Shown: positions 1-8,450 of the stretch, one piece after another
How positions within the stretch are numbered: position 1 is the stretch's first letter
Layout: every line of letters begins with the position of its first letter
Virus record (IMG/VR): IMGVR_UViG_3300029467_000119
Span: 1-8,450 of that record
DNA length: 8,450 nt
Source of the DNA: a virus
Lineage: Duplodnaviria; Heunggongvirae; Uroviricota; Caudoviricetes
Direction: 5' to 3' (one strand)
Made by a program: the position numbers and the translations under genes
Notes under the pieces: model-generated
Database searches by the model: none
Told to the model about the DNA's origin: nothing
What the model saw: only the letters and a program-made list of their open reading frames with translations

Positions 1-483
1 ATGACGAAGAAAAAAGCACATAAACTTGGTTCAGCGACCATCGCGCTTAACAAGCGCGCCCGTCACGAATACTTTATCGAAGAAGAGTTCGAAGCGGGAC
101 TTGCCCTGCAAGGCTGGGAGGTTAAATCCCTGCGCGCAGGAAAAGCCAATATCAGCGACAGCTACGTCCTTCTGCGTGACGGAGAGGCATTTCTGTTTGG
201 CGCTAACATCACGCCAATGGCCGTGGCCTCCACGCATGTGGTGTGCGATCCTACCCGTACCCGCAAGTTACTTCTCAACCAGCGCGAACTGGACTCATTG
301 TACGGTCGCGTCAATCGAGAAGGCTATACCGTAGTGGCGCTCTCCCTATACTGGAAAAATGCCTGGTGCAAAGTGAAAATCGGCGTCGCCAAAGGTAAGA
401 AACAGCACGATAAACGTTCAGACATCAAAGAACGCGAATGGCAGGTGGATAAAGCGCGTATCATGAAAAACGCCCACCGTTAA
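1..483 (+). CDS. smpB: SsrA-binding protein SmpB (trans-translation)
   Basis: 160-aa ORF from ATG at 1 to TAA at 481-483. The translation (MTKKKAHK...[36 protein letters not shown]...) is recognised as enterobacterial SmpB, and it sits immediately upstream of ssrA as in the conserved smpB-ssrA arrangement. Confidence 0.97.
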
Positions 484-674
484 ACCTGTAGTCCAATTAT
501 TGACCAGTTCCTCACCGCGCCTCCCTCTCCGGCGGCGCGAATGAACATCTTATTGGCTATCACATCCGACACAAATGTTGCCATCCCATTGCTTAATCGA
601 ATAAAAATCAGGCTACATGGGTGCTAAATCTTTAATGATAACGCCATTGAGGCTGGTCATGGCGCTCATAAATC

Positions 675-691
675 TGGTATACTTACCGTTA
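675..691 (+). promoter_or_regulatory. Candidate ssrA promoter: extended -10 element TGgTATACT (675..683), predicted precursor start about 7 nt before the mature 5' end
   Basis: TG at 675-676, one base, then TATACT at 678-683, positioned 15-20 nt upstream of the mature tmRNA 5' end at 698. No good -35 hexamer at 17-bp spacing, which is consistent with an extended -10 promoter. Read by eye only. Confidence 0.45.
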
Positions 692-697
692 CACATT

Positions 698-1060
698 GGG
701 GCTGATTCTGGATTCGACGGGATTTGCGAAACCCAAGGTGCATGCCGAGGGGCGGTTGGCCTCGTAAAAAGCCGCAAAAAATAGTCGCAAACGACGAAAA
801 CTACGCTTTAGCAGCTTAATAACCTGCTTAGAGCCCTCTCTCCCTAGCCTCCGCTCTTAGGACGGGGATCAAGAGAGGTCAAACCCAAAAGAGATCGCGT
901 GGAAGCCCTGCCTGGGGTTGAAGCGTTAAAACTTAATCAGGCTAGTTTGTTAGTGGCGTGTCCGTCCGCAGCTGGCAAGCGAATGTAAAGACTGACTAAG
1001 CATGTAGTACCGAGGATGTAGGAATTTCGGACGCGGGTTCAACTCCCGCCAGCTCCACCA
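698..1060 (+). ncRNA. ssrA: tmRNA (SsrA, 10Sa RNA), complete 363 nt
   Basis: Begins GGGGCTGATTCTGGATTCGACGGG at 698 and ends GGTTCAACTCCCGCCAGCTCCACCA at 1060 (tRNA-Ala-like acceptor/T-arm with CCA). Contains the internal tag reading frame and matches the length of E. coli tmRNA. Confidence 0.97.
787..819 (+). other. tmRNA tag-peptide reading frame (resume codon GCA at 787; encodes ANDENYALAA; TAA at 817-819 followed by a second TAA at 820-822)
   Basis: GCA AAC GAC GAA AAC TAC GCT TTA GCA GCT TAA TAA read directly from the sequence. This is the canonical enterobacterial degradation tag. Confidence 0.92.
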
Positions 1061-1070
1061 AATAAATCAA

Positions 1071-1099
1071 GGGGTTACGTGAAAGCGTAGCCCCTTTTT
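1071..1099 (+). terminator. Intrinsic terminator downstream of ssrA
   Basis: Stem GGGGTTACG (1071-1079) pairs with CGTAGCCCC (1085-1093) with one G.U pair, loop TGAAA, followed by TTTTT (1095-1099). Confidence 0.6.
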
Positions 1100-1118
1100 C
1101 TTAGGTAGTGGCGGCAAA

Positions 1119-1157
1119 ATGGCGACAGACTTTTGCGTCCATCTTGCCTGTCGCCAT
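1119..1157. repeat. Perfect 10-bp inverted repeat ATGGCGACAG (1119-1128) / CTGTCGCCAT (1148-1157) with 19-bp spacer; candidate operator or RNA hairpin upstream of the 1184 ORF
   Basis: Read directly. Lies 26 nt upstream of the ATG at 1184. A direct repeat CCATCTTG occurs at 1139-1146 and 1154-1161. Confidence 0.4.
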
Positions 1158-1183
1158 CTTGAAATCATGCAAAGAGGTTTGAC

Positions 1184-1666
1184 ATGGAAGAACTTCACTT
1201 TGTTTACATCAATGCAAATGGTCGTATCGGTGTTCACTCAATACAGAGCATCAGTTATAGCGAAAATCACATACAGGGCATTTGTAAGAACACCGATCGA
1301 ATAAAAACCTTCCGAAAAGACCGCATTCTTAAACAATACGATTCACAAGAACAAGCCATTCAGGAATGCGCGTCATTCCTCCCCGAAAACTACTCACATC
1401 TCACTAAGCAGTCAGGTCCGAAAAAAAATACATTCGATGTGTGTTTCACCGGATTTAAGCAAGCAGATAAAGAAAGGTTGGTTGATAAGGCGAATGAACA
1501 AGGATTAACGGTAAGAACATCTGTAACCCAAAACCTTCAGATGCTCTGTTGCGGTTACAATGCAGGCCCATCAAAAGTATCGGCAGCCAGGATGAAAGGC
1601 ACTATCATCATAGATGAGCCTGGCTTTATACATTTTCTTGAAACGGGTGAGATCCCAGATGAATAA
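1184..1666 (+). CDS. Hypothetical 160-aa protein with WYL-like N-terminal half and BRCT-like C-terminal half (prophage cargo)
   Basis: ATG at 1184 preceded by AAGAGG (1172-1177); TAA at 1664-1666. Residues about 5-48 (FVYINANGRIGVHSIQSISYSENHIQGICKNTDRIKTFRKDRI) fit the WYL-domain pattern ending in R-x-F-R-x-D-R-I. Residues about 84-155 (VCFTGF...ERL...GLTV..SV.....LCCG...GPSK...A...GTIIIDE..F..L) fit a BRCT fold pattern. About 38% GC by hand count of one 60-nt line. Confidence 0.7.
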   Translation: MEELHFVYINANGRIGVHSIQSISYSENHIQGICKNTDRIKTFRKDRILKQYDSQEQAIQECASFLPENYSHLTKQSGPKKNTFDVCFTGFKQADKERLVDKANEQGLTVRTSVTQNLQMLCCGYNAGPSKVSAARMKGTIIIDEPGFIHFLETGEIPDE

Positions 1667-1694
1667 AAACCTGCCGTAGCAGGTTCTCTTTCTT
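1665..1694. terminator. Bidirectional intrinsic terminator shared by the convergent 1184 ORF (+) and ogr (-)
   Basis: Stem ACCTGC (1669-1674), loop CGTA, stem GCAGGT (1679-1684). Flanked by AAAAA (1665-1669), which gives a U-tract for the minus-strand transcript, and by TCTCTTTCTT (1685-1694) for the plus-strand transcript. Confidence 0.6.
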
Positions 1695-1911
1695 AAAAAT
1701 TCATATGGCCCTGACCACCTGGCAATGGATGTGGAGGGGCTGTGGCAATCACTGCAGGTGTCACAATAAACCGGACCACTGTTTCATGGGTAACAAAAGT
1801 GCTCCCGCAGTTAATATTTTGGCACTGGCAGTAACGCTCTTTGGTGCTTTCTGTTACTTGAAAACTGCTCCTTGTGTGCGCCGCATGACCACACTTTGGA
1901 CAATTCATCAT
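1693..1911 (-). CDS. ogr: Ogr/B-family zinc-finger late-gene transcription activator (72 aa)
   Basis: From the second in-frame ATG (1909-1911) the product is 72 aa, MMNCPKCGHAAHTRSS...KERYCQCQNINCGSTF..., with C-x2-C-x22-C-x4-C spacing (Cys 4, 7, 30, 35) typical of P2 Ogr and 186 B. The ORF track's longer 87-aa form begins 45 nt upstream at 1956. Confidence 0.88.
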   Translation of the reverse strand: MMNCPKCGHAAHTRSSFQVTESTKERYCQCQNINCGSTFVTHETVVRFIVTPAVIATAPPHPLPGGQGHMNF

Positions 1912-1979
1912 ATCCAGATCCCTACCTTTGCTATCAGAATCATTGCAATGATACACAAAATATCAATATTGAGAACCAT

Positions 1980-3080
1980 TTATTCCATTTCAAGATCACC
2001 AATTTTCACTTCAAGTTCAATACTGGTCGTAAAACCGTTATCCGGGCTGACGGTATGTGTCAGAGTCGTAATGGTCCATTCCGCATCATCTATTGGCTGT
2101 TTAAAGCCACTGACCTTCACAGGCATTTCCGTGTAGAGATCTGCCCGACCTTCCGCCAGTTGTAGCGAGAATGACGCAACACCGCGTTGCAGGCGTTCCC
2201 ACTGCATTTTCGCCGCTCGTTCGGCGTTGCTCCGGTTGGCATAAGTGCGATTAAGTACCAGCACGTTTTCATCCGTCCCCACCAGATAATCGCCCTGCTT
2301 CGCTTCCGGCTCTTTCTTCTGCTTCTTAGTTCTGCGCTTACGCTTCACCGTGGTGCTTTCTTTCTTCGCGGGTTCGCGGGTATGCAACCAGCTGGCAATG
2401 ACGCCCGTATAGGCTCCGCGATCTGCCAGGGTAAAGCGGTGACTGTCGCCGTCCTTACGCGTGATAGTGATCACCGGCAGTGGTTTACCGCTGGCGCTTT
2501 TGCCCTGTCCCTGCCGGATGAATAACAGATTGCCATTTTTCACCGACGCAATAGCACCGTACTGGCGCGCCAGTCGCATCAGAAAACTGCCGTCACTCTC
2601 ATTGGTCTGGTCTATATGTTCCACGGGTTTATCTGACAGGTCTTTACCCAATGCCATCTTCAGTTTGTGCCGTGCAGCTATTTCCTTCACCACTTCCCCA
2701 ACGGTGGTCTTGTGCCACGACTTTTCACGGCGGGTATTCAGCGTTTCACGAAAATCAGCACTTCGCGCCCGGATAGTCAGGCGGTCCGGTGCGCCAGTGT
2801 GTTCAATCTCGTCCACCGTGAATGCCCCTTTCGGGAAAAGCAGCTGCCCCTTCCAGCCCAGCGCCAGCGTAATAACCGCACCACGGCGCGGCAGCACGAT
2901 TTTTCCGTCGGCGTCGTCCAGCTCCAGATCAAGCTGGTCTGCTTCAAAGCCCCGATTGTCCGTCAGCGTCAAACTCATCAGGCGGTTATCCAGCACAGTG
3001 GTGATATCCCTGCCCTCAATACTGATGCTGAATGCGGGAGTTTTGTTGCCTTTGTTAAGCAGTTCAGAGCTGAAATTCAC
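1980..3080 (-). CDS. D: P2 gpD-like phage tail protein (366 aa)
   Basis: Long ORF whose ATG overlaps the stop of the upstream U gene in an ATGA arrangement at 3077-3080. Recognised as the gpD family by its position in the conserved T-U-D-ogr order and by overall sequence character. Confidence 0.88.
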   Translation of the reverse strand: MNFSSELLNKGNKTPAFSISIEGRDITTVLDNRLMSLTLTDNRGFEADQLDLELDDADGKIVLPRRGAVITLALGWKGQLLFPKGAFTVDEIEHTGAPDRLTIRARSADFRETLNTRREKSWHKTTVGEVVKEIAARHKLKMALGKDLSDKPVEHIDQTNESDGSFLMRLARQYGAIASVKNGNLLFIRQGQGKSASGKPLPVITITRKDGDSHRFTLADRGAYTGVIASWLHTREPAKKESTTVKRKRRTKKQKKEPEAKQGDYLVGTDENVLVLNRTYANRSNAERAAKMQWERLQRGVASFSLQLAEGRADLYTEMPVKVSGFKQPIDDAEWTITTLTHTVSPDNGFTTSIELEVKIGDLEME

Positions 3081-3562
3081 GACAGCAGCCCTCCCACCGT
3101 TTTACTGATATCGCTTAAGGCAGACGTTGCCGTGTCCTGCAGATTATTCAGTTGCGCACTGAGATCACCGAACATATCGGACAGGGATTCATCCACCCGT
3201 TTGAGCGACAGGGTGAACTCAATCCGGCGCGGCATACCGTCGCGGAAAAACTCCGTTTTAGTCTGATTCAGTCCCTCAATCACATACATGCCGTAAATCG
3301 TGCCGCTGCCTTCAATCAGGGGCCATGCTTTCCCCTGTTCTGCCATCTGCTCCAGTACCAGCAACGACAGCCTGCCGCCTGTTATCTCCGGCATAAGAAC
3401 ACCAGAAAGCGTCAGCATGTCGTTGTCCGGTCCCAGAAACTGCGTGGACGGACGTCGGTTGACCCGGCTGTTTGCCGCATGTCGCCAGCTGCGTTGATAC
3501 TGCAGTTCCTGATACGGCACAGTGCGCAGCATAAACACGTACAATCCCAGCACCATCATCAT
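3077..3562 (-). CDS. U: P2 gpU-like phage tail protein (161 aa)
   Basis: ORF MMMVLGLYVFMLRTVPYQELQYQRSWRHAANSRVNRRPST... of the size expected for gpU. Its start overlaps the gpT stop (3559-3562) and its stop overlaps the gpD start, indicating translational coupling within the late tail operon. Confidence 0.88.
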   Translation of the reverse strand: MMMVLGLYVFMLRTVPYQELQYQRSWRHAANSRVNRRPSTQFLGPDNDMLTLSGVLMPEITGGRLSLLVLEQMAEQGKAWPLIEGSGTIYGMYVIEGLNQTKTEFFRDGMPRRIEFTLSLKRVDESLSDMFGDLSAQLNNLQDTATSALSDISKTVGGLLS

Positions 3563-4944
3563 GCGTCGTATCCCCCCTGATCGCTGTAGTTACTCCTGGC
3601 TTTTGCCTTCAGCCTGCGTTCACGTTCATCAAGCTGGCGTGCCACCTCCCGCGCAATATCCTGCGCACTTTGTCCTGGCTGCGTCTGGATGATGATCTGC
3701 GTCGGTGCCTCAATCCGTTGAGCGGGCGGCACAGTGGCTGCACGACTCACCATCGCTTCGCCGCCTTTCGCGGGAAGTGCCAAAGGATGTAACGGCGGAA
3801 GCTCTGCAGGCGCGGCAGCAACGCCCATCATTCCGGCAACAACGGCAGCCAGTGCAGCTGTATTTCTCCGACTGGTCACGTTTGCCGGACCGTTGACAAT
3901 TTCAGGCCCGTTTTCACCGACAATGCCGAACTGCCCGCGCGGGATATAGCCGCCGCTGTCATACATCCCCGCAAAGCCATATCCCCATGACGGAAAACCA
4001 CCCGATGGCATCATCACTTTACCGTCTGCATTCACCGTCGCAGGTTGCTGACGCGTCACGCTTTCCGGCAGTTTCGCCTTTGCAGCCTCTTTACTGACAA
4101 TACCGAGTTTCTCCAGCAACCAGGAAACGCCGGATTTCAGGGAGTCCAACGGATGCATGACCATATTCAGCCCTTCCGCCAGTGCCTCCCCGAATCGTCG
4201 CCCCATTGCCGCTGCGCTCTGCAGTTCGGCAGAGGTCGACTTAACAGGCGTCAGCAGATCAGTAAACCAGCCCCACAACGCCTGTACTTTGTCGCCAATC
4301 CACTGGAACACGGGCTTAAGCGGTTCGAATGCAGCACTGATGGGACCTGCCGCCGCTTTGAATCCTTCCACCACGCCACCGAGAAATGCGGTGATGGGTT
4401 GCCAGTATTTCCAGACAACCAGCGCCACGCCCGCCAGTGCAGTAACCACAAGACCTATCGGACTGAGCAGAGCACCTAACAGACCAGATACGGCATACAG
4501 GGCAACGCGCAGCATCGCCAGCGGACCGGATGCCAGCACACGCAGCACCGCGCCTGCGGCAGCCAGTCCACCGCGTAGTGCTGCCAGTGGATTCATAAAC
4601 ATCACAGCAACCGCACGTAAACCGGATAATCCAGACCGCAACAGTGCAACCGGCACACCTGCTACAGTTTTCAGGACATTCCCCGTCAGTGATGCGGTGC
4701 GGCGCAAAGACGACAACGGCGCAGTAAGTAAACCCGCTGCGTTGCCCGATGAAGCAAGCCCGCGTCGCAGCAGTGCCAGTGGAGCGCCAGCTAACCAGGA
4801 CAACGCGCTGCTGGTTCGTGTTACTGCTGCCGTAACGGAAGGTAACGTTTTGATACCCAGCACAGAGAATCCCAGACGGATGACTGCCAGCGGCCCCAGC
4901 ACTGCAGCCAGCGCCACCGCTAAGGTGCCGAGGCCTACGGTACC
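3559..4944 (-). pseudogene. T: Tail tape-measure protein gpT, 5'-truncated (C-terminal ~461 codons only)
   Basis: Ala/Gly/Leu-rich open frame typical of tape-measure proteins, ending ...ERERRLKAKARSNYSDQGGYDA. The frame is open from the stop at 3559-3561 up to position 4944 and is closed by an in-frame stop at 4945-4947. No ATG is present; the ORF track used GTG at 4915-4917. The length is roughly half that expected for P2-family gpT, recalled as about 800 aa. GC about 75% by hand count of one 60-nt line. Confidence 0.8.
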
Positions 4945-5201
4945 TCATTAATCGGTACACATGGCAGGCAGTGAATCTGTGCCAGAAAACCATCTATCAG
5001 CGTTGAATCTTCAGTCAGATCGGTAAGCAGCCAGATTTCTGGCGCATTGAGCTGATGCGGTTGATCTGGGTTGAGTTTGTTTCGCAGAGTCTGGACATTT
5101 ATTCCTGCACGTTCTGCCAGCTTCGCCATATTGTGACGTAGGGCAAAAGCTCTACAGGCTTCATCAAAATGCGGATGTTTGGAAATCTTATAATCAAACA
5201 T
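4935..5201 (-). CDS. cII: 186-type CII-family regulator, probable N-terminal fragment (88 aa, HTH retained), 3'-truncated at the deletion junction
   Basis: ATG at 5199-5201 preceded by AAGGGGG. The product MFDYKISKHPHFDEACRAFALRHNMAKLAERAGINVQTLRNKLNP... matches the N-terminal half of phage regulatory CII-family proteins, which I recall as about 170 aa. The ORF ends ...PINEVP* exactly where the gpT frame begins. Downstream of apl, as in phage 186. Confidence 0.65.
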   Translation of the reverse strand: MFDYKISKHPHFDEACRAFALRHNMAKLAERAGINVQTLRNKLNPDQPHQLNAPEIWLLTDLTEDSTLIDGFLAQIHCLPCVPINEVP

Positions 5202-5233
5202 GCGGCCCCCTTAGAAAGGTCTCATAATTGAAC

Positions 5234-5482
5234 TTAGTCACCAACGATGACATTAAAGTTGAAATTGGATTGGCCCATTTTTTTCCTGACTTGTTCCTTT
5301 TTGTACTCAAGGTAACGTATACATACTCTGTCTTTCGATTTTTCCTTTTTTTCCAAAAACTTAGCAAGTTTACCATTGTGAATCATTTGATATACCGAAC
5401 CACGAGATCGGCCTTCCCATTCCGCGAACTCTGCAGGGGTCGCCATCACTTTTGGTACACGAATTGAAATGTCGTTGCTCAT
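5234..5482 (-). CDS. Apl/Cox-like excisionase and transcriptional regulator (82 aa)
   Basis: Small ORF transcribed divergently from the CI gene, the position of apl in 186 and cox in P2. The segment TPAEFAEWEGRSRGSVYQMIHNGKLA resembles the Cox DNA-binding region. ATG at 5480-5482, TAA at 5234-5236. Confidence 0.7.
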   Translation of the reverse strand: MSNDISIRVPKVMATPAEFAEWEGRSRGSVYQMIHNGKLAKFLEKKEKSKDRVCIRYLEYKKEQVRKKMGQSNFNFNVIVGD

Positions 5483-5603
5483 AGTGCAGTATCTCTTACT
5501 TTGTGTGCGTTTTAGTTCGTTTTAGCTCGTCTCTTAAAATCTCACATCAAGAGACATGAAGACATTACGATCTTGATTCAAGATTGTCAAATGGAGATTA
5601 CCA
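5483..5603. promoter_or_regulatory. Divergent lysis/lysogeny switch region between apl and CI (presumed pR/pL and operators)
   Basis: 121-bp intergenic region containing a tandem 10-bp repeat TTTAGTTCGT/TTTAGCTCGT (5511-5530), direct GACAT repeats (5553-5557 and 5561-5565) and a 15-bp palindrome ATCTTGATTCAAGAT (5570-5584) about 20 bp upstream of the CI start codon. Exact promoter hexamers were not confidently assigned. Confidence 0.5.
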
Positions 5604-6236
5604 ATGTTAAACATCAGAATGGGTTCCGATACGGGAGGTAAGGCAGCTATTGAGAGGCTGCTTGAGGCTTATGGATTCACAACTAAGCAGGCATTAAGCG
5701 AGCATCTGAATGTCTCAAAAAGCACTATGGCAAACAGAGTGTTACGTGATAGCTTTCCTGCTGACTGGATAATTCAGTGCGCACTAGAAACTGGTGTTTC
5801 GTTGCTTTGGTTAGCAACAGGACAGGGAAGCATGAAAGAAGAATGTGAGCCTGAAAAAAGTTCTCATAATGAGAACAAACTAGCGATTAGACCGTTATCC
5901 AAACTCGTAACTCCATCTATTCCTAAAGGAACCTTGGAGAATGGAAAACTCCGTATTGATGAAAAGATTTTTCTAGACCACAGCATATTACCTGCACATT
6001 ATGAAGAATCGATGTTCTTAGAAACCCCTACTGATTGTTATCTCATCGATAAATCAGTTAAACAAGTCAGCAATGGATTCTGGCTTATCAATATTGATGG
6101 AATGATTATTATTGCAAAAATCATGCGGATTCCCGGCAATAAGATTGTAGTAAATCAAGATGAAGCGTCTTTCGAGTGCTCTGCTGATGATGTGGAAGTT
6201 ATTGGGCGCGCAGTCAAAGTAATAAAGAGTATCTAA
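5604..6236 (+). CDS. cI: Phage 186-type CI immunity repressor (210 aa)
   Basis: ATG at 5604 with GGAGA 5 nt upstream. The N-terminal motif TKQALSEHLNVSKSTMANRVLRDSFPADWIIQCALETGVSLLWLATGQG is characteristic of the phage CI-repressor HTH domain family. The stop at 6234-6236 is followed 2 nt later by the int start, giving a CI-int operon as in 186. Confidence 0.85.
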   Translation: MLNIRMGSDTGGKAAIERLLEAYGFTTKQALSEHLNVSKSTMANRVLRDSFPADWIIQCALETGVSLLWLATGQGSMKEECEPEKSSHNENKLAIRPLSKLVTPSIPKGTLENGKLRIDEKIFLDHSILPAHYEESMFLETPTDCYLIDKSVKQVSNGFWLINIDGMIIIAKIMRIPGNKIVVNQDEASFECSADDVEVIGRAVKVIKSI

Positions 6237-6238
6237 AC

Positions 6239-7255
6239 ATGACTGTCAGAAAACAGCCAAACGGTAAATGGTTGTGTGAGTGCTATCCCAATGGACGCAA
6301 TGGCAAACGCGTACGTAAGCAATTTGCTACGAAAGGCGAAGCCATTGCGTTTGAAAGCTTCACTATGGAAGAGGTGAACAAAAAACCGTGGTTAGGTGAA
6401 AAGGATGATCGGCGGCACCTGTCAGAATTAATTGAGCTGTGGTATTCCCTGTATGGTCGAACTCTCGCTGACCCCAAGCGTTTAATGGCGAAATTAAAAA
6501 TCATTTGTGGTGGACTTGGTGATCCCATAGCCTCTGAATTGACAGCAGGTGATTTCACTAAGTATCGGGAAGCGCGACTAAAAGGTGACGTTAAAAACAT
6601 TGATGGTGTGTTTATGTCGCCGGTTAAGCCTCGAACAGTAAACCTTGAACAACGCAATCTATCATCAGTTTTTGGAACTTTAAAAAAATTAGGCCACTGG
6701 TCCGCCCCCAACCCACTCGCCGGTCTACCAACATTTAAAATTGCAGAGGGCGAACTGGCATTTCTGACACAGGAAGAAATAAAACGCTTGCTGAATGCCT
6801 GTGCTGATTCTCAAAATCCCAGCCTACTTTTGATTGCAAAAATATGCTTAGCCACAGGCGCGCGCTGGAGTGAAGCCGAAAACCTGCAGGGTCATCAGTT
6901 ATCAAAATACCGTATAACTTATACCAAGACAAAGGGCAAGAAAAACCGAACCGTACCTATTTCTCAGGAACTGTACAACGAACTCCCCAAAAAACGAGGG
7001 AAGTTATTCACACCATGCAGAAAAGCCTTTGAACGGGCGGTAAAACGGGCCGGTATCGAACTACCGGAAGGCCAATGCACCCACGTCCTGCGCCATACAT
7101 TTGCCAGCCACTTTATGATGAATGGCGGAAACATACTGGTGCTGCGCGATATTCTAGGACATGCGGATATAAAAATGACGATGATCTACGCTCATTTTTC
7201 TCCAGATCATTTAGAAGACGCGGTGACTAAAAATCCACTAAATTTATTAAAGTGA
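6239..7255 (+). CDS. int: P2-type tyrosine integrase (338 aa)
   Basis: N-terminus ...NGKRVRKQFATKGEAIAFE... and a C-terminal catalytic region with GARWSE (Arg), HVLRHTF (His-x-x-Arg) and MIYAHF (Tyr), typical of P2/186 integrases. Confidence 0.95.
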   Translation: MTVRKQPNGKWLCECYPNGRNGKRVRKQFATKGEAIAFESFTMEEVNKKPWLGEKDDRRHLSELIELWYSLYGRTLADPKRLMAKLKIICGGLGDPIASELTAGDFTKYREARLKGDVKNIDGVFMSPVKPRTVNLEQRNLSSVFGTLKKLGHWSAPNPLAGLPTFKIAEGELAFLTQEEIKRLLNACADSQNPSLLLIAKICLATGARWSEAENLQGHQLSKYRITYTKTKGKKNRTVPISQELYNELPKKRGKLFTPCRKAFERAVKRAGIELPEGQCTHVLRHTFASHFMMNGGNILVLRDILGHADIKMTMIYAHFSPDHLEDAVTKNPLNLLK

Positions 7256-7262
7256 GAAAAGA

Positions 7263-8450
7263 ATGCAACAGGATAGAGATGTTGAAACTCAGTTAAATAT
7301 GATGCTGAATGAGTTGTATAGTAATGAGGATTTAATGCCACCTTTTAAACCTAAAGGTGACATCGTTTCTGATTTTAACTCTCGCTGCAATGAATACCTT
7401 AATTTTTTAAATGAATTTAAAATTAAAAACAAAACCAGGCTTAATATTGATCTGCTAATAAAGCGAGTATTAAAAATACAACTAGGAATAACCGAGAGCC
7501 TTCAAGAGTTTTTAGCGGGTGACATCAAAGAGGCATATGATATTTTCGATGACACTTTTTCAGACAATCTTATTAATAAGCATATTCAAAGAATCACAAT
7601 CCCCCTTAAGGAAATATGTAATTATGATCAACCACTCTATAGAGTACGCAAATCAGACAAGCCATTACTTAACAGGGAAGATATTTTCCATATACCATTT
7701 TCCTGCCGACACCTTGTCAGTGCTCAACGTTACTCAGTAGCGGGACTCCCCTGTTTATATCTAGGTTCATCTCTATATGTATGCTGGCAAGAAATGGACA
7801 AACCAGATTTTGATAAACTATATATATCCTCATTCATATCACAAGATACTAAATCTAAAATCCTTAACTTTGTTCCACAACTGAAAACCTCAATCAATAC
7901 TAAAGAATGGAGCAGCGAAGAGTTAAGAACAAATAATTATATCAAAGCTTCGTATTTGGTTCTCTGGCCCTTAATTTTCTCATGTAGCTATATAAAAACA
8001 CATGAAAACTCAAGTTTTACGCAAGAATATATAATACCTAATTTACTCATGCAGTGGATAAGCACACGGGGTCAATCTCCAATATCTGGCATAGCCTATT
8101 CATCAACGAAAATGAAAAAAAGTCTAGGTTCAAAACTTTCAATAAATGTTGTATTACCCCCCAAAGCCACATATAGACAAACGACTCAAAAAGATTTTTG
8201 CCCAAGGTTGTCATCATTATTTGATTTTACTCCACCTGTTTCATGGCAGGTTTTAAAAACATTAGAGTATCAGAATGCAATCCCTAAAACATCTGAGCAG
8301 GGGAAAGCTATCAGATTTCTTGCTCGAAAAGAAAGGCTATCTGGCATTACTGATTTTGATAGTGACATAATCAGACTTTACCCATTAACTGACTTTTATA
8401 AACTGGAAGTTTGTATGGATCGCTTATTTGATTATTCACCTATTAGATAG
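7263..8450 (+). CDS. Hypothetical 395-aa protein with a central RES-like (NAD+-targeting toxin-type) domain; AT-rich prophage cargo
   Basis: ATG at 7263, 7 nt after the int stop, with a purine-rich GAGAAAAG upstream; TAG at 8448-8450. About 33% GC by hand count of two 60-nt lines. Residues 155-177 (QRYSVAGLPCLYLGSSLYVCWQE) and 274-299 (ISGIAYSSTKMKKSLGSKLSINVVLP) resemble the conserved Arg, Glu and Ser motifs of RES domains: Arg156 codon 7728-7730, Glu177 codon 7791-7793, Ser280 codon 8100-8102. The flanking N-terminal (~115 aa) and C-terminal (~95 aa) regions are unassigned. Confidence 0.8.
   Translation: MQQDRDVETQLNMMLNELYSNEDLMPPFKPKGDIVSDFNSRCNEYLNFLNEFKIKNKTRLNIDLLIKRVLKIQLGITESLQEFLAGDIKEAYDIFDDTFSDNLINKHIQRITIPLKEICNYDQPLYRVRKSDKPLLNREDIFHIPFSCRHLVSAQRYSVAGLPCLYLGSSLYVCWQEMDKPDFDKLYISSFISQDTKSKILNFVPQLKTSINTKEWSSEELRTNNYIKASYLVLWPLIFSCSYIKTHENSSFTQEYIIPNLLMQWISTRGQSPISGIAYSSTKMKKSLGSKLSINVVLPPKATYRQTTQKDFCPRLSSLFDFTPPVSWQVLKTLEYQNAIPKTSEQGKAIRFLARKERLSGITDFDSDIIRLYPLTDFYKLEVCMDRLFDYSPIR

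Follow-up and report, generated by a model that had tools for sequence, protein, structure and literature searches.

A putative antitoxin-less RES-fold enzyme in the integrase-att slot of a 186/Fels-2-type prophage, with a catalytic core related to aRES

The classical RES-domain proteins are the toxins of Xre-RES toxin-antitoxin pairs, in which the Xre antitoxin, encoded upstream of the RES toxin, plugs the toxin active site. MbcT is a nicotinamide adenine dinucleotide (NAD+) phosphorylase for whose toxicity R27, R47, and Y58 are essential while E69 contributes, and the paper on NatT connects that toxin with NAD/NADP depletion. RES-domain proteins without a paired antitoxin, termed aRES, were described by the Sorek laboratory in January 2026. 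These stand-alone proteins lie in defense islands. In E. coli they confer protection against diverse phages, accompanied by growth arrest, and they deplete NAD+ on infection with adenosine diphosphate ribose (ADPR)-1''-phosphate as product, as demonstrated for three proteins (Osterman et al., bioRxiv 10.64898/2026.01.28.702374). They were selected as stand-alone RES proteins of 300-600 amino acids (aa) without an antitoxin operon, and defined by HHsearch matches to RES and to PF18870 (HEPN_RES_NTD1), the latter with a probability above 80% (10.64898/2026.01.28.702374). Here we analyze a gene at positions 7263-8450 (+ strand) of a stretch of viral DNA of 8,450 nt (IMG/VR record IMGVR_UViG_3300029467_000119, positions 1 to 8,450; hereafter the window), which lies between the integrase gene and the attachment site of a 186/Fels-2-type prophage. 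An earlier reading of the window (the original prediction) had proposed a single-gene, antitoxin-less, NAD+-depleting defense or exclusion effector, an idea that is supported, as it matches aRES as demonstrated and the genomic context agrees with it. In our analysis, the gene probably encodes a stand-alone RES-fold cargo enzyme that lacks an antitoxin, consumes NAD+, and would protect the lysogen on infection.

The open reading frame (ORF) runs from an ATG to a stop codon that forms the end of the window and encodes 395 aa. Its start Met has an equivalent in 38 out of 38 aligned homologs, which confirms the predicted gene in frame and start. An AlphaFold2 model of the protein reached a predicted local distance difference test score of 85.4 and a predicted template modeling score of 0.87. 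Three lines of evidence assign its central 215 residues to the RES branch of the ADP-ribosyltransferase (ART) fold, and helical regions precede and follow this core. The regions and the residues discussed below have the following positions in the window:

7263-7616, + strand: N-terminal all-helical domain, aa 1-118, five helices (from model secondary structure and conservation)
7617-8267, + strand: RES/ADP-ribosyltransferase-fold catalytic core, aa 119-335
7641-7643, + strand: codon of Arg127 in strand beta-1, motif LYRVR; aligns with R27 of MbcT and R182 of aRES
7647-7649, + strand: codon of Arg129, invariant
7728-7730, + strand: codon of Arg156, the 'R' of R-E-S; aligns with R47 of MbcT and R215 of aRES
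7758-7760, + strand: codon of Tyr166; aligns with Y58 of MbcT and Y225 of aRES
7791-7793, + strand: codon of Glu177, the 'E' of R-E-S; aligns with E69 of MbcT and E236 of aRES
8103-8105, + strand: codon of Ser281, the 'S' of R-E-S, motif GIAYSST; aligns with S334 of aRES
8145-8147, + strand: codon of Asn295, motif NVVLPP; aligns with N349 of aRES, ART 'region 3' position
8268-8447, + strand: C-terminal helical extension, aa 336-395, motif LYPLTDFYKLE

Conservation was scored on a diverse family alignment of 53 sequences with a mean identity of 26%. R129, R156, Y166, and E177 are invariant, R127, S281, and N295 are conserved in at least 90% of the sequences, and G161, Y256, and G276 are also invariant or nearly so. 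The R-E-S residues and the Arg, Tyr, and Asn of the NAD+ site that mark the RES superfamily are all present. N295 sits at 'region 3', where the RES clade carries Asn and the ART fold Glu (Iyer et al.), and the R-Y-N pattern of the NAD+-phosphorolysing RES clade is kept in the family. Three further invariant residues beside the active site (H143, R149, and W175) are family-specific. The original prediction had quoted two motifs as a RES signature, QRYSVAGLPCLYLGSSLYVCWQEM (aa 155-178) and GIAYSST...NVVLPP (aa 276-300), and the family alignments show both with high conservation. The key serine that it named, Ser280, was off by one: position 280 is variable in the homolog alignment and the conserved serine is S281. 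Outside the core, G86 is invariant and A91 nearly so in the N-terminal domain, and Y373 and F378 are nearly invariant in the C-terminal extension, in each case across the family.

The modeled core is an ART-type beta-sandwich that is closest to solved RES proteins, with MbcT as the best structural match. A low-stringency hhalign comparison with the MbcT-family alignment, weak (E 0.005-0.009) and used for local residue mapping only, places R127, R156, Y166, and E177 onto R27, R47, Y58, and E69 of MbcT (the MbcT sequence used is identical to PDB 6FKG except for the Met/Val start residue). The RES call, originally based on motifs, is upheld by weak Pfam RES matches in many relatives and by catalytic residues that are invariant and aligned with those of MbcT and aRES.

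By sequence comparison, the catalytic core of aRES is the closest detectable, though distant, relative of the core of the window protein. The aRES sequences were taken from Supplementary Table S4 of the preprint and their homologs gathered, of which 34 were aligned. Over the full length, hhalign joined the two families with a probability of 90.2% (E 1.5e-6, 271 columns), and core against core with a probability of 84.8% (E 6.6e-6, score 42.6), whereas the best of 60 column shuffles scored 18.2 (E 0.061) and the reversed alignment 10.8. MbcT against aRES reached only E 0.017 in the same test. By this measure, aRES stands nearer to the core of the window family than to the classical toxins, and weak scores are normal within the RES superfamily, as MbcT and aRES are both bona fide members. 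Eleven invariant residues are shared in register between the window family and aRES: R127/R182, R129/R184, R156/R215, G161/G220, Y166/Y225, E177/E236, Y256/Y309, G276/G329, S281/S334, T282/T335, and N295/N349.

The window protein matches phrog_7835 with an E-value of 3e-151. Homologs numbered 311 by word index and 2,686 representative clusters at E<=1e-3, patchily present in Bacteroidota, Acidobacteriota, Bacillota, Planctomycetota, Myxococcota, and other phyla; a single allele accounts for over 6,000 index blocks from assemblies of Salmonella. The uncharacterized phage proteins of PHROG 7835, 12013, and 37055 are true family members, and so is YopC of SPbeta (tblastn E 3e-33, 30% identity over 78% of the query). 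Existing labels vary: the E. coli copies are a 'hypothetical protein' in RefSeq, YopC is a 'RES domain-containing protein', and the Cartapus copy is a 'putative RES protein, NAD+ binding domain'. The Pfam RES model (PF08808) matched 25 of 38 close relatives, at best with E 0.015, and at E<=0.01 also 23 of 53 diverse relatives (best 7.6e-6); YopC scored 22.4 bits against a cut-off of 23.2. PF08808 membership of the window protein is reached only transitively, through these relatives.

The sole above-cut-off Pfam match of the window protein itself is Plasmod_dom_1 (aa 89-118, positions 7527-7616; 25.4 against a cut-off of 23.9 bits), which is also above cut-off in 6 out of 38 homologs. Most likely this match is an artefact of composition, produced by a helix that is rich in Lys, Asn, and Ile and encoded by AT-rich DNA.

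The gene stands out in composition, with a GC content of 34.0% and a GC content at third codon positions of 28.5%, against 44.9% GC in int, 40.0% in cI, 54% in gpD/gpU, 52% in smpB, and 47.3% in the window as a whole. The predicted GC content of about one third was thus correct, whereas that of about 75% for the tape-measure fragment was not (58.9%), the other window features spanning 40-59%. As predicted, the gene lies between integrase and att of a 186/P2-type prophage, in the order cI, int, gene. The right attachment site lies beyond the window end; in L005, a locus with an identical protein, the same 45-mer as in attL recurs 125 nt past the stop codon, which makes the RES-like gene the final gene of the prophage. 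The order cI-int-gene-attR, with gaps of 3-7 nt, was found in all Salmonella and E. coli (enterobacterial) prophage loci examined. SEN8 and MLG42 have no gene in the int-attR slot, and the Fels-2 record leaves about 150 bp between int and its end. RE2010, SopEPhi, SE479_1PHIH2, and Cartapus carry homologs in the same post-integrase slot. RE2010 and Cartapus share 91% identity with the window in the integrase but only 45% in the RES-like protein, as is typical when cargo has been exchanged. The integrase-att region is listed as a minor defense hotspot, with 3% of the P2 defense systems, in a survey of P2-like prophages from September 2026.

The slot can hold other genes as well. Klebsiella phage ST437-OXA245phi4.1 (L019, 5023-6573) carries an unrelated gene for 516 aa there that overlaps the int stop codon and has no Pfam or PADLOC match, and which is another uncharacterized cargo candidate.

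Outside this slot, distant relatives recur in restriction-modification and other defense loci, the kind of context for which the original prediction had suggested a survey. One relative is flanked by the type I genes hsdS and hsdR (L022), another lies between a type III methylase and the candidate defense gene PDC-S39 with overlapping reading frames (L035), a third beside Mrr, Schlafen-AlbA, and HNH genes (L021), and a fourth beside a faint HEPN_AbiU2 match (L020). A PADLOC survey of 119 immediate neighbors of 76 relatives, which relied on crude ORF calls and is supportive only, returned families that include PLD-helicase, type IV and type I restriction enzymes, PbeA, DrmD, DrmC, LmuB, and type III methylases; five neighbors are integrases.

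In some lineages, the gene directly upstream is of note. In a Bacteroidota subclade (L042, L045, L049, L050, L054, L061, and L063), a partner gene for 219-220 aa is conserved upstream of the RES-like gene (about 7260-8000). Its copies are 30-84% identical and have no Pfam or PADLOC match. The partner overlaps the RES-like gene by 14 nt in L042, L045, L049, L050, and L061 and by 4 nt in L054, and is separated from it by 1 nt in L063. It may be the regulator, antidote, or sensor of a two-gene variant. A helix-turn-helix (HTH) gene is found directly upstream in unrelated lineages, namely yopB of SPbeta (L001, 2402-2629, Cro/C1-type), L059 (7211-7795), and L043 (7482-7943), the proteins of the latter two being homologous to each other. 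In Klebsiella sp. R390 (L031, 7206-7766), the upstream gene is a 186-type cI and the order is cI, RES-like gene, int, in place of the cI, int, RES-like gene of the window. In Empedobacter brevis (L098, 6007-7827), a 607-aa fusion of a calcineurin-like phosphoesterase and a phosphoribosyltransferase ends 2 nt upstream, reminiscent of the calcineurin-type NAD+-cleaving 'Metis' defense mentioned in the aRES preprint.

Taken as a stand-alone NAD+-consuming enzyme, the RES-like protein could work as follows. In the lysogen, the gene would share a transcript with cI and int, as suggested by the 7-nt gap between the int stop codon and its start and by the finding of no terminator-like site on the + strand from 5300 to 8450, a stretch that covers cI, int, and the gene. 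Helical domains of its own, at the N- and/or C-terminus, would probably keep the protein inactive, in view of the missing antitoxin and the family-wide conservation of G86, A91, Y373, and F378; we propose the N-terminal helical domain as a sensor or autoinhibitory module. Infection by another phage would switch the enzyme on, whereupon the RES core, by analogy with MbcT, NatT, and aRES, would cleave NAD+ by phosphorolysis into nicotinamide and ADPR-1''-phosphate. The collapse of NAD+ would then stop growth and abort the infection.

Several observations weigh against this reading. The window protein has no match to Pfam RES even at E<=10, nor any in the PADLOC or NCBIfam profiles; the suggested profile search gave weak matches in many relatives and none in the protein itself. 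Searching PDB sequences with three family alignments (hmmsearch) retrieved no RES protein, the only matches being designed helical bundles on the N-terminal helices. Foldseek returned nothing significant from the PDB (top match ParT, E 0.77) and no significant match from the viral BFVD library. The suggested structural check gave the ART-type fold with MbcT as best match, and no significant Foldseek match. At the N-terminus, PF18870 was found neither in the window protein nor in 38 homologs by a Pfam scan at E<=10, and hhalign against the aRES N-terminus gave a probability of 0.7% (E 0.077), so that the N-terminal domain as a PF18870 domain is unsupported at the sequence level. The zinc-ribbon-like CxxC...CxxC of the aRES N-terminus (C8, C11, C31, and C34, invariant) is absent from the window family, whose N-terminus is a helix; this motif is our own observation from the aRES alignment and no criterion of the preprint authors. 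The neighbor survey had no matched background rate, and the co-transcription with cI and int is read from two features, the spacing and the absent terminator-like site. A literature search found nothing on yopC or the PHROG 7835 family, including any experiment on a family member. Finally, not every RES enzyme is a NADase, as ParT ADP-ribosylates protein.

The last point leads to an alternative in which the gene product is a ParT-like RES-fold ADP-ribosyltransferase that modifies a specific host or phage protein or nucleic acid without depleting NAD+, and which could still serve as a defense or exclusion factor. We consider this unlikely, since its nearest profile relative, aRES, is a demonstrated NAD+ phosphorylase, its best structural match, MbcT, is one as well, and the R-Y-N pattern of the phosphorolysing clade is retained. 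We hold it to be possible, if doubtful, that the PHROG 7835/YopC-like family (about 2,700 clusters) is a RES immune effector independent of aRES, with helical domains of its own that sense another phage cue, a different reaction via H143, R149, and W175, and an activity tied to the state of the repressor. The reaction could then involve another nucleophile or a macromolecular target, and the placement in a cI-int operon could give built-in self-immunity; the HTH or 220-aa partners that some lineages have upstream might regulate the enzyme or act as its antidotes.

A role in prophage maintenance or lysogen physiology without any defense, as an addiction toxin restrained by cI or an inducer of stress dormancy, is distinctly unlikely. 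It would fit the implication of the classical Xre-RES toxins in persistence and plasmid stability, the upstream HTH genes of several lineages (yopB, L043, L059, and the cI-type repressor in L031), and the retention of the gene with cI in a decayed prophage. In the window, however, the neighbor is an integrase and not an HTH antitoxin, no PF09722-type toxin-binding domain was detected with Pfam, most relatives have no conserved partner, and many lie in restriction-modification or defense loci and not in elements that need stabilization. The gene is phage-borne, and phages encode many NAD+- and ADP-ribose-processing domains for counter-defense, which would suit a phage-side enzyme for counter-defense or host takeover that uses up immune signals derived from NAD+ or attaches ADP-ribose to host factors at establishment or induction. 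Such a role is very improbable for a gene that sits in the lysogenic cI-int unit and not in an early lytic operon, whose homologs are in many cases chromosomal and inside restriction-modification operons, and given a published survey in which NADase-type ARTs are under-represented in viruses and RES is assigned to immune systems. We give hardly any credence to a RES-fold protein that has lost catalysis and serves in binding or as a structural component: the missing direct Pfam match and the distance from characterized toxins would agree with it, but the MbcT-critical and aRES-invariant residues are invariant or nearly so across about 2,700 clusters. A stand-alone NAD+-consuming defense enzyme thus remains the reading that we favor.

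The remainder of the window places the gene in a decayed element. The window starts with smpB (1-483), followed by the transfer-messenger RNA gene ssrA (698-1060; tag ANDENYALAA), at whose 3' end the 186/Fels-2-type prophage is inserted. Its features are:

1016-1060, + strand: attL core, equal to the 45-nt 3' end of ssrA
1184-1666, + strand: BRCT-like ORF
1693-1956, - strand: ogr
1980-3080, - strand: gpD
3077-3562, - strand: gpU
3559-4917, - strand: tape-measure fragment, C-terminal 452 aa
4935-5201, - strand: cII/CP76, truncated (88 of 169 aa)
5234-5482, - strand: cox/apl
5604-6236, + strand: cI repressor (Pfam Phage_CI_repr, Phage_CI_C)
6239-7255, + strand: int (Pfam Int_N, Phage_integrase)
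7263-8450, + strand: RES-like gene, stop codon 8448-8450

Deletion has left a remnant of the prophage: it lacks about 25 kb with late and replication genes that its intact relatives (L003 and L004) have, and the tape-measure fragment abuts the cII/CP76 fragment. L005 is a similar remnant with a different, larger deletion that joins gpU directly to cox. Intact prophages with the identical 395-aa protein are found in other assemblies (L003, L004, and L006-L008). The host is most likely Salmonella enterica: Salmonella is the source named for identical or near-identical proteins, and fljA-fljB-hin follow in some of the loci. A megablast search of the gene against complete E. coli genomes matched the integrase flank alone.

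The RES-like gene is intact in a prophage from which most of the genome is gone. In roughly 200 contigs of Salmonella, the annotated product is limited to the C-terminal 218 aa, from Met178 (P0029; L106-L108, 7470-8660). We rejected a pseudogene as the explanation of this version: the 395-aa frame is intact in DNA that is 99.7% identical, and the short form is a systematic start-codon miscall that drops the catalytic N-terminal half from the annotation. The window differs from the allele annotated with 218 aa by 4 nucleotides, 4/4 being synonymous. The intact frame in a decayed prophage and these all-synonymous differences count for selection on the gene.

The ORF of 160 aa at the attL end (1184-1666, + strand) has a borderline Pfam BRCT match (E 3.3e-4, exactly at the cut-off), and its Cartapus counterpart is annotated as 'putative exonuclease'. 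MLG42 has this ORF and SEN8 lacks it, and it may therefore mark a second slot for cargo, across att from the first. P4-like satellites or islands follow in tandem directly past attR at ssrA in many relatives (L009 and L107, about 7570-11650 and 9020-13150; L010, 9128-13227; L007, 17965-21188). They carry defense cargo of their own, which consists of SIR2-like and DUF87 ATPase genes, QatB/QueC/TatD (Qat system), or a type I restriction-modification system, and make the ssrA locus a stacked defense site.

Single-gene RES NADase defense is already described in the 2026 preprint, and the concept is not categorically new. The window family is large, unannotated, and distinct from aRES outside the core, and the PADLOC v2.0.0 (2023) and Pfam/NCBIfam models searched do not detect PHROG 7835. 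If active, it would be a second large family of antitoxin-less RES NADases in bacterial immunity, and the integrase-att slot of 186/Fels-2-type prophages would be confirmed as a working defense locus. Given its abundance, the family could affect phage typing and the outcome of phage therapy for Salmonella, E. coli, Klebsiella, and Enterobacter.

Among the described systems, aRES is the most similar. Both aRES and the window protein are a few hundred residues long, with a non-catalytic N-terminus followed by the RES core and without an antitoxin gene, and both families occur in defense-type loci and in Enterobacterales. At 395 aa, with int upstream and attR downstream in L005, the window protein falls within the stand-alone size range of the aRES selection, and its location in a prophage int-att slot, with relatives in defense-type loci, agrees with the defense-gene or mobile-element setting of aRES. 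The two differ in size (450-500 aa for aRES) and in their profile matches: aRES controls give E 1e-11 to 1e-17 with Pfam RES and also match PF18870 (residues 27-159), and the window protein matches neither. Their C-termini share no similarity by hhalign, and the homolog searches do not overlap among the matches listed; 'Salmonella' occurs only 18 times in the aRES preprint list, though the window family is very common in this genus. Whereas aRES lies in chromosomal defense islands (10.64898/2026.01.28.702374), the window protein and its phage relatives occupy the P2/186 cI-int-attR slot and SPbeta. Because PF18870 and the cysteine motif are missing, the C-terminus is unrelated, and the matches do not overlap, the family is not aRES as defined, and we treat it as a sister variant with the same engine and different accessory domains. 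Such a natural contrast, one core with different accessory domains, helps to ask how RES enzymes stay off and switch on.

The Xre-RES toxins (MbcT, NatT, P. putida Res, VPA0770, and ParT) are single-domain proteins of 144-250 aa that are paired with an antitoxin. The window protein is not a small single-domain toxin: it has 395 aa in three regions, with about 120 extra N-terminal and 60 extra C-terminal residues, and its gene is flanked by int and attR. No Xre-type gene is adjacent to it in the window, as had been predicted, and no PF09722-type domain occurs among the Pfam matches of the family; YopC differs from the window gene in being preceded by the HTH gene yopB, and the HTH genes upstream of some distant relatives are of another kind than the Xre antitoxins. 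The DSR/SIR2, TIR, and SEFIR effectors share the logic of a sensor region fused to a NAD+-destroying domain and of growth arrest on infection, but their catalytic folds are unrelated to RES. They also yield ADPR, whereas RES enzymes yield ADPR-1''-phosphate, which the phage NARP1 pathway cannot recycle. For this reason, carriers of the window gene would be expected to resist NARP1-dependent phages.

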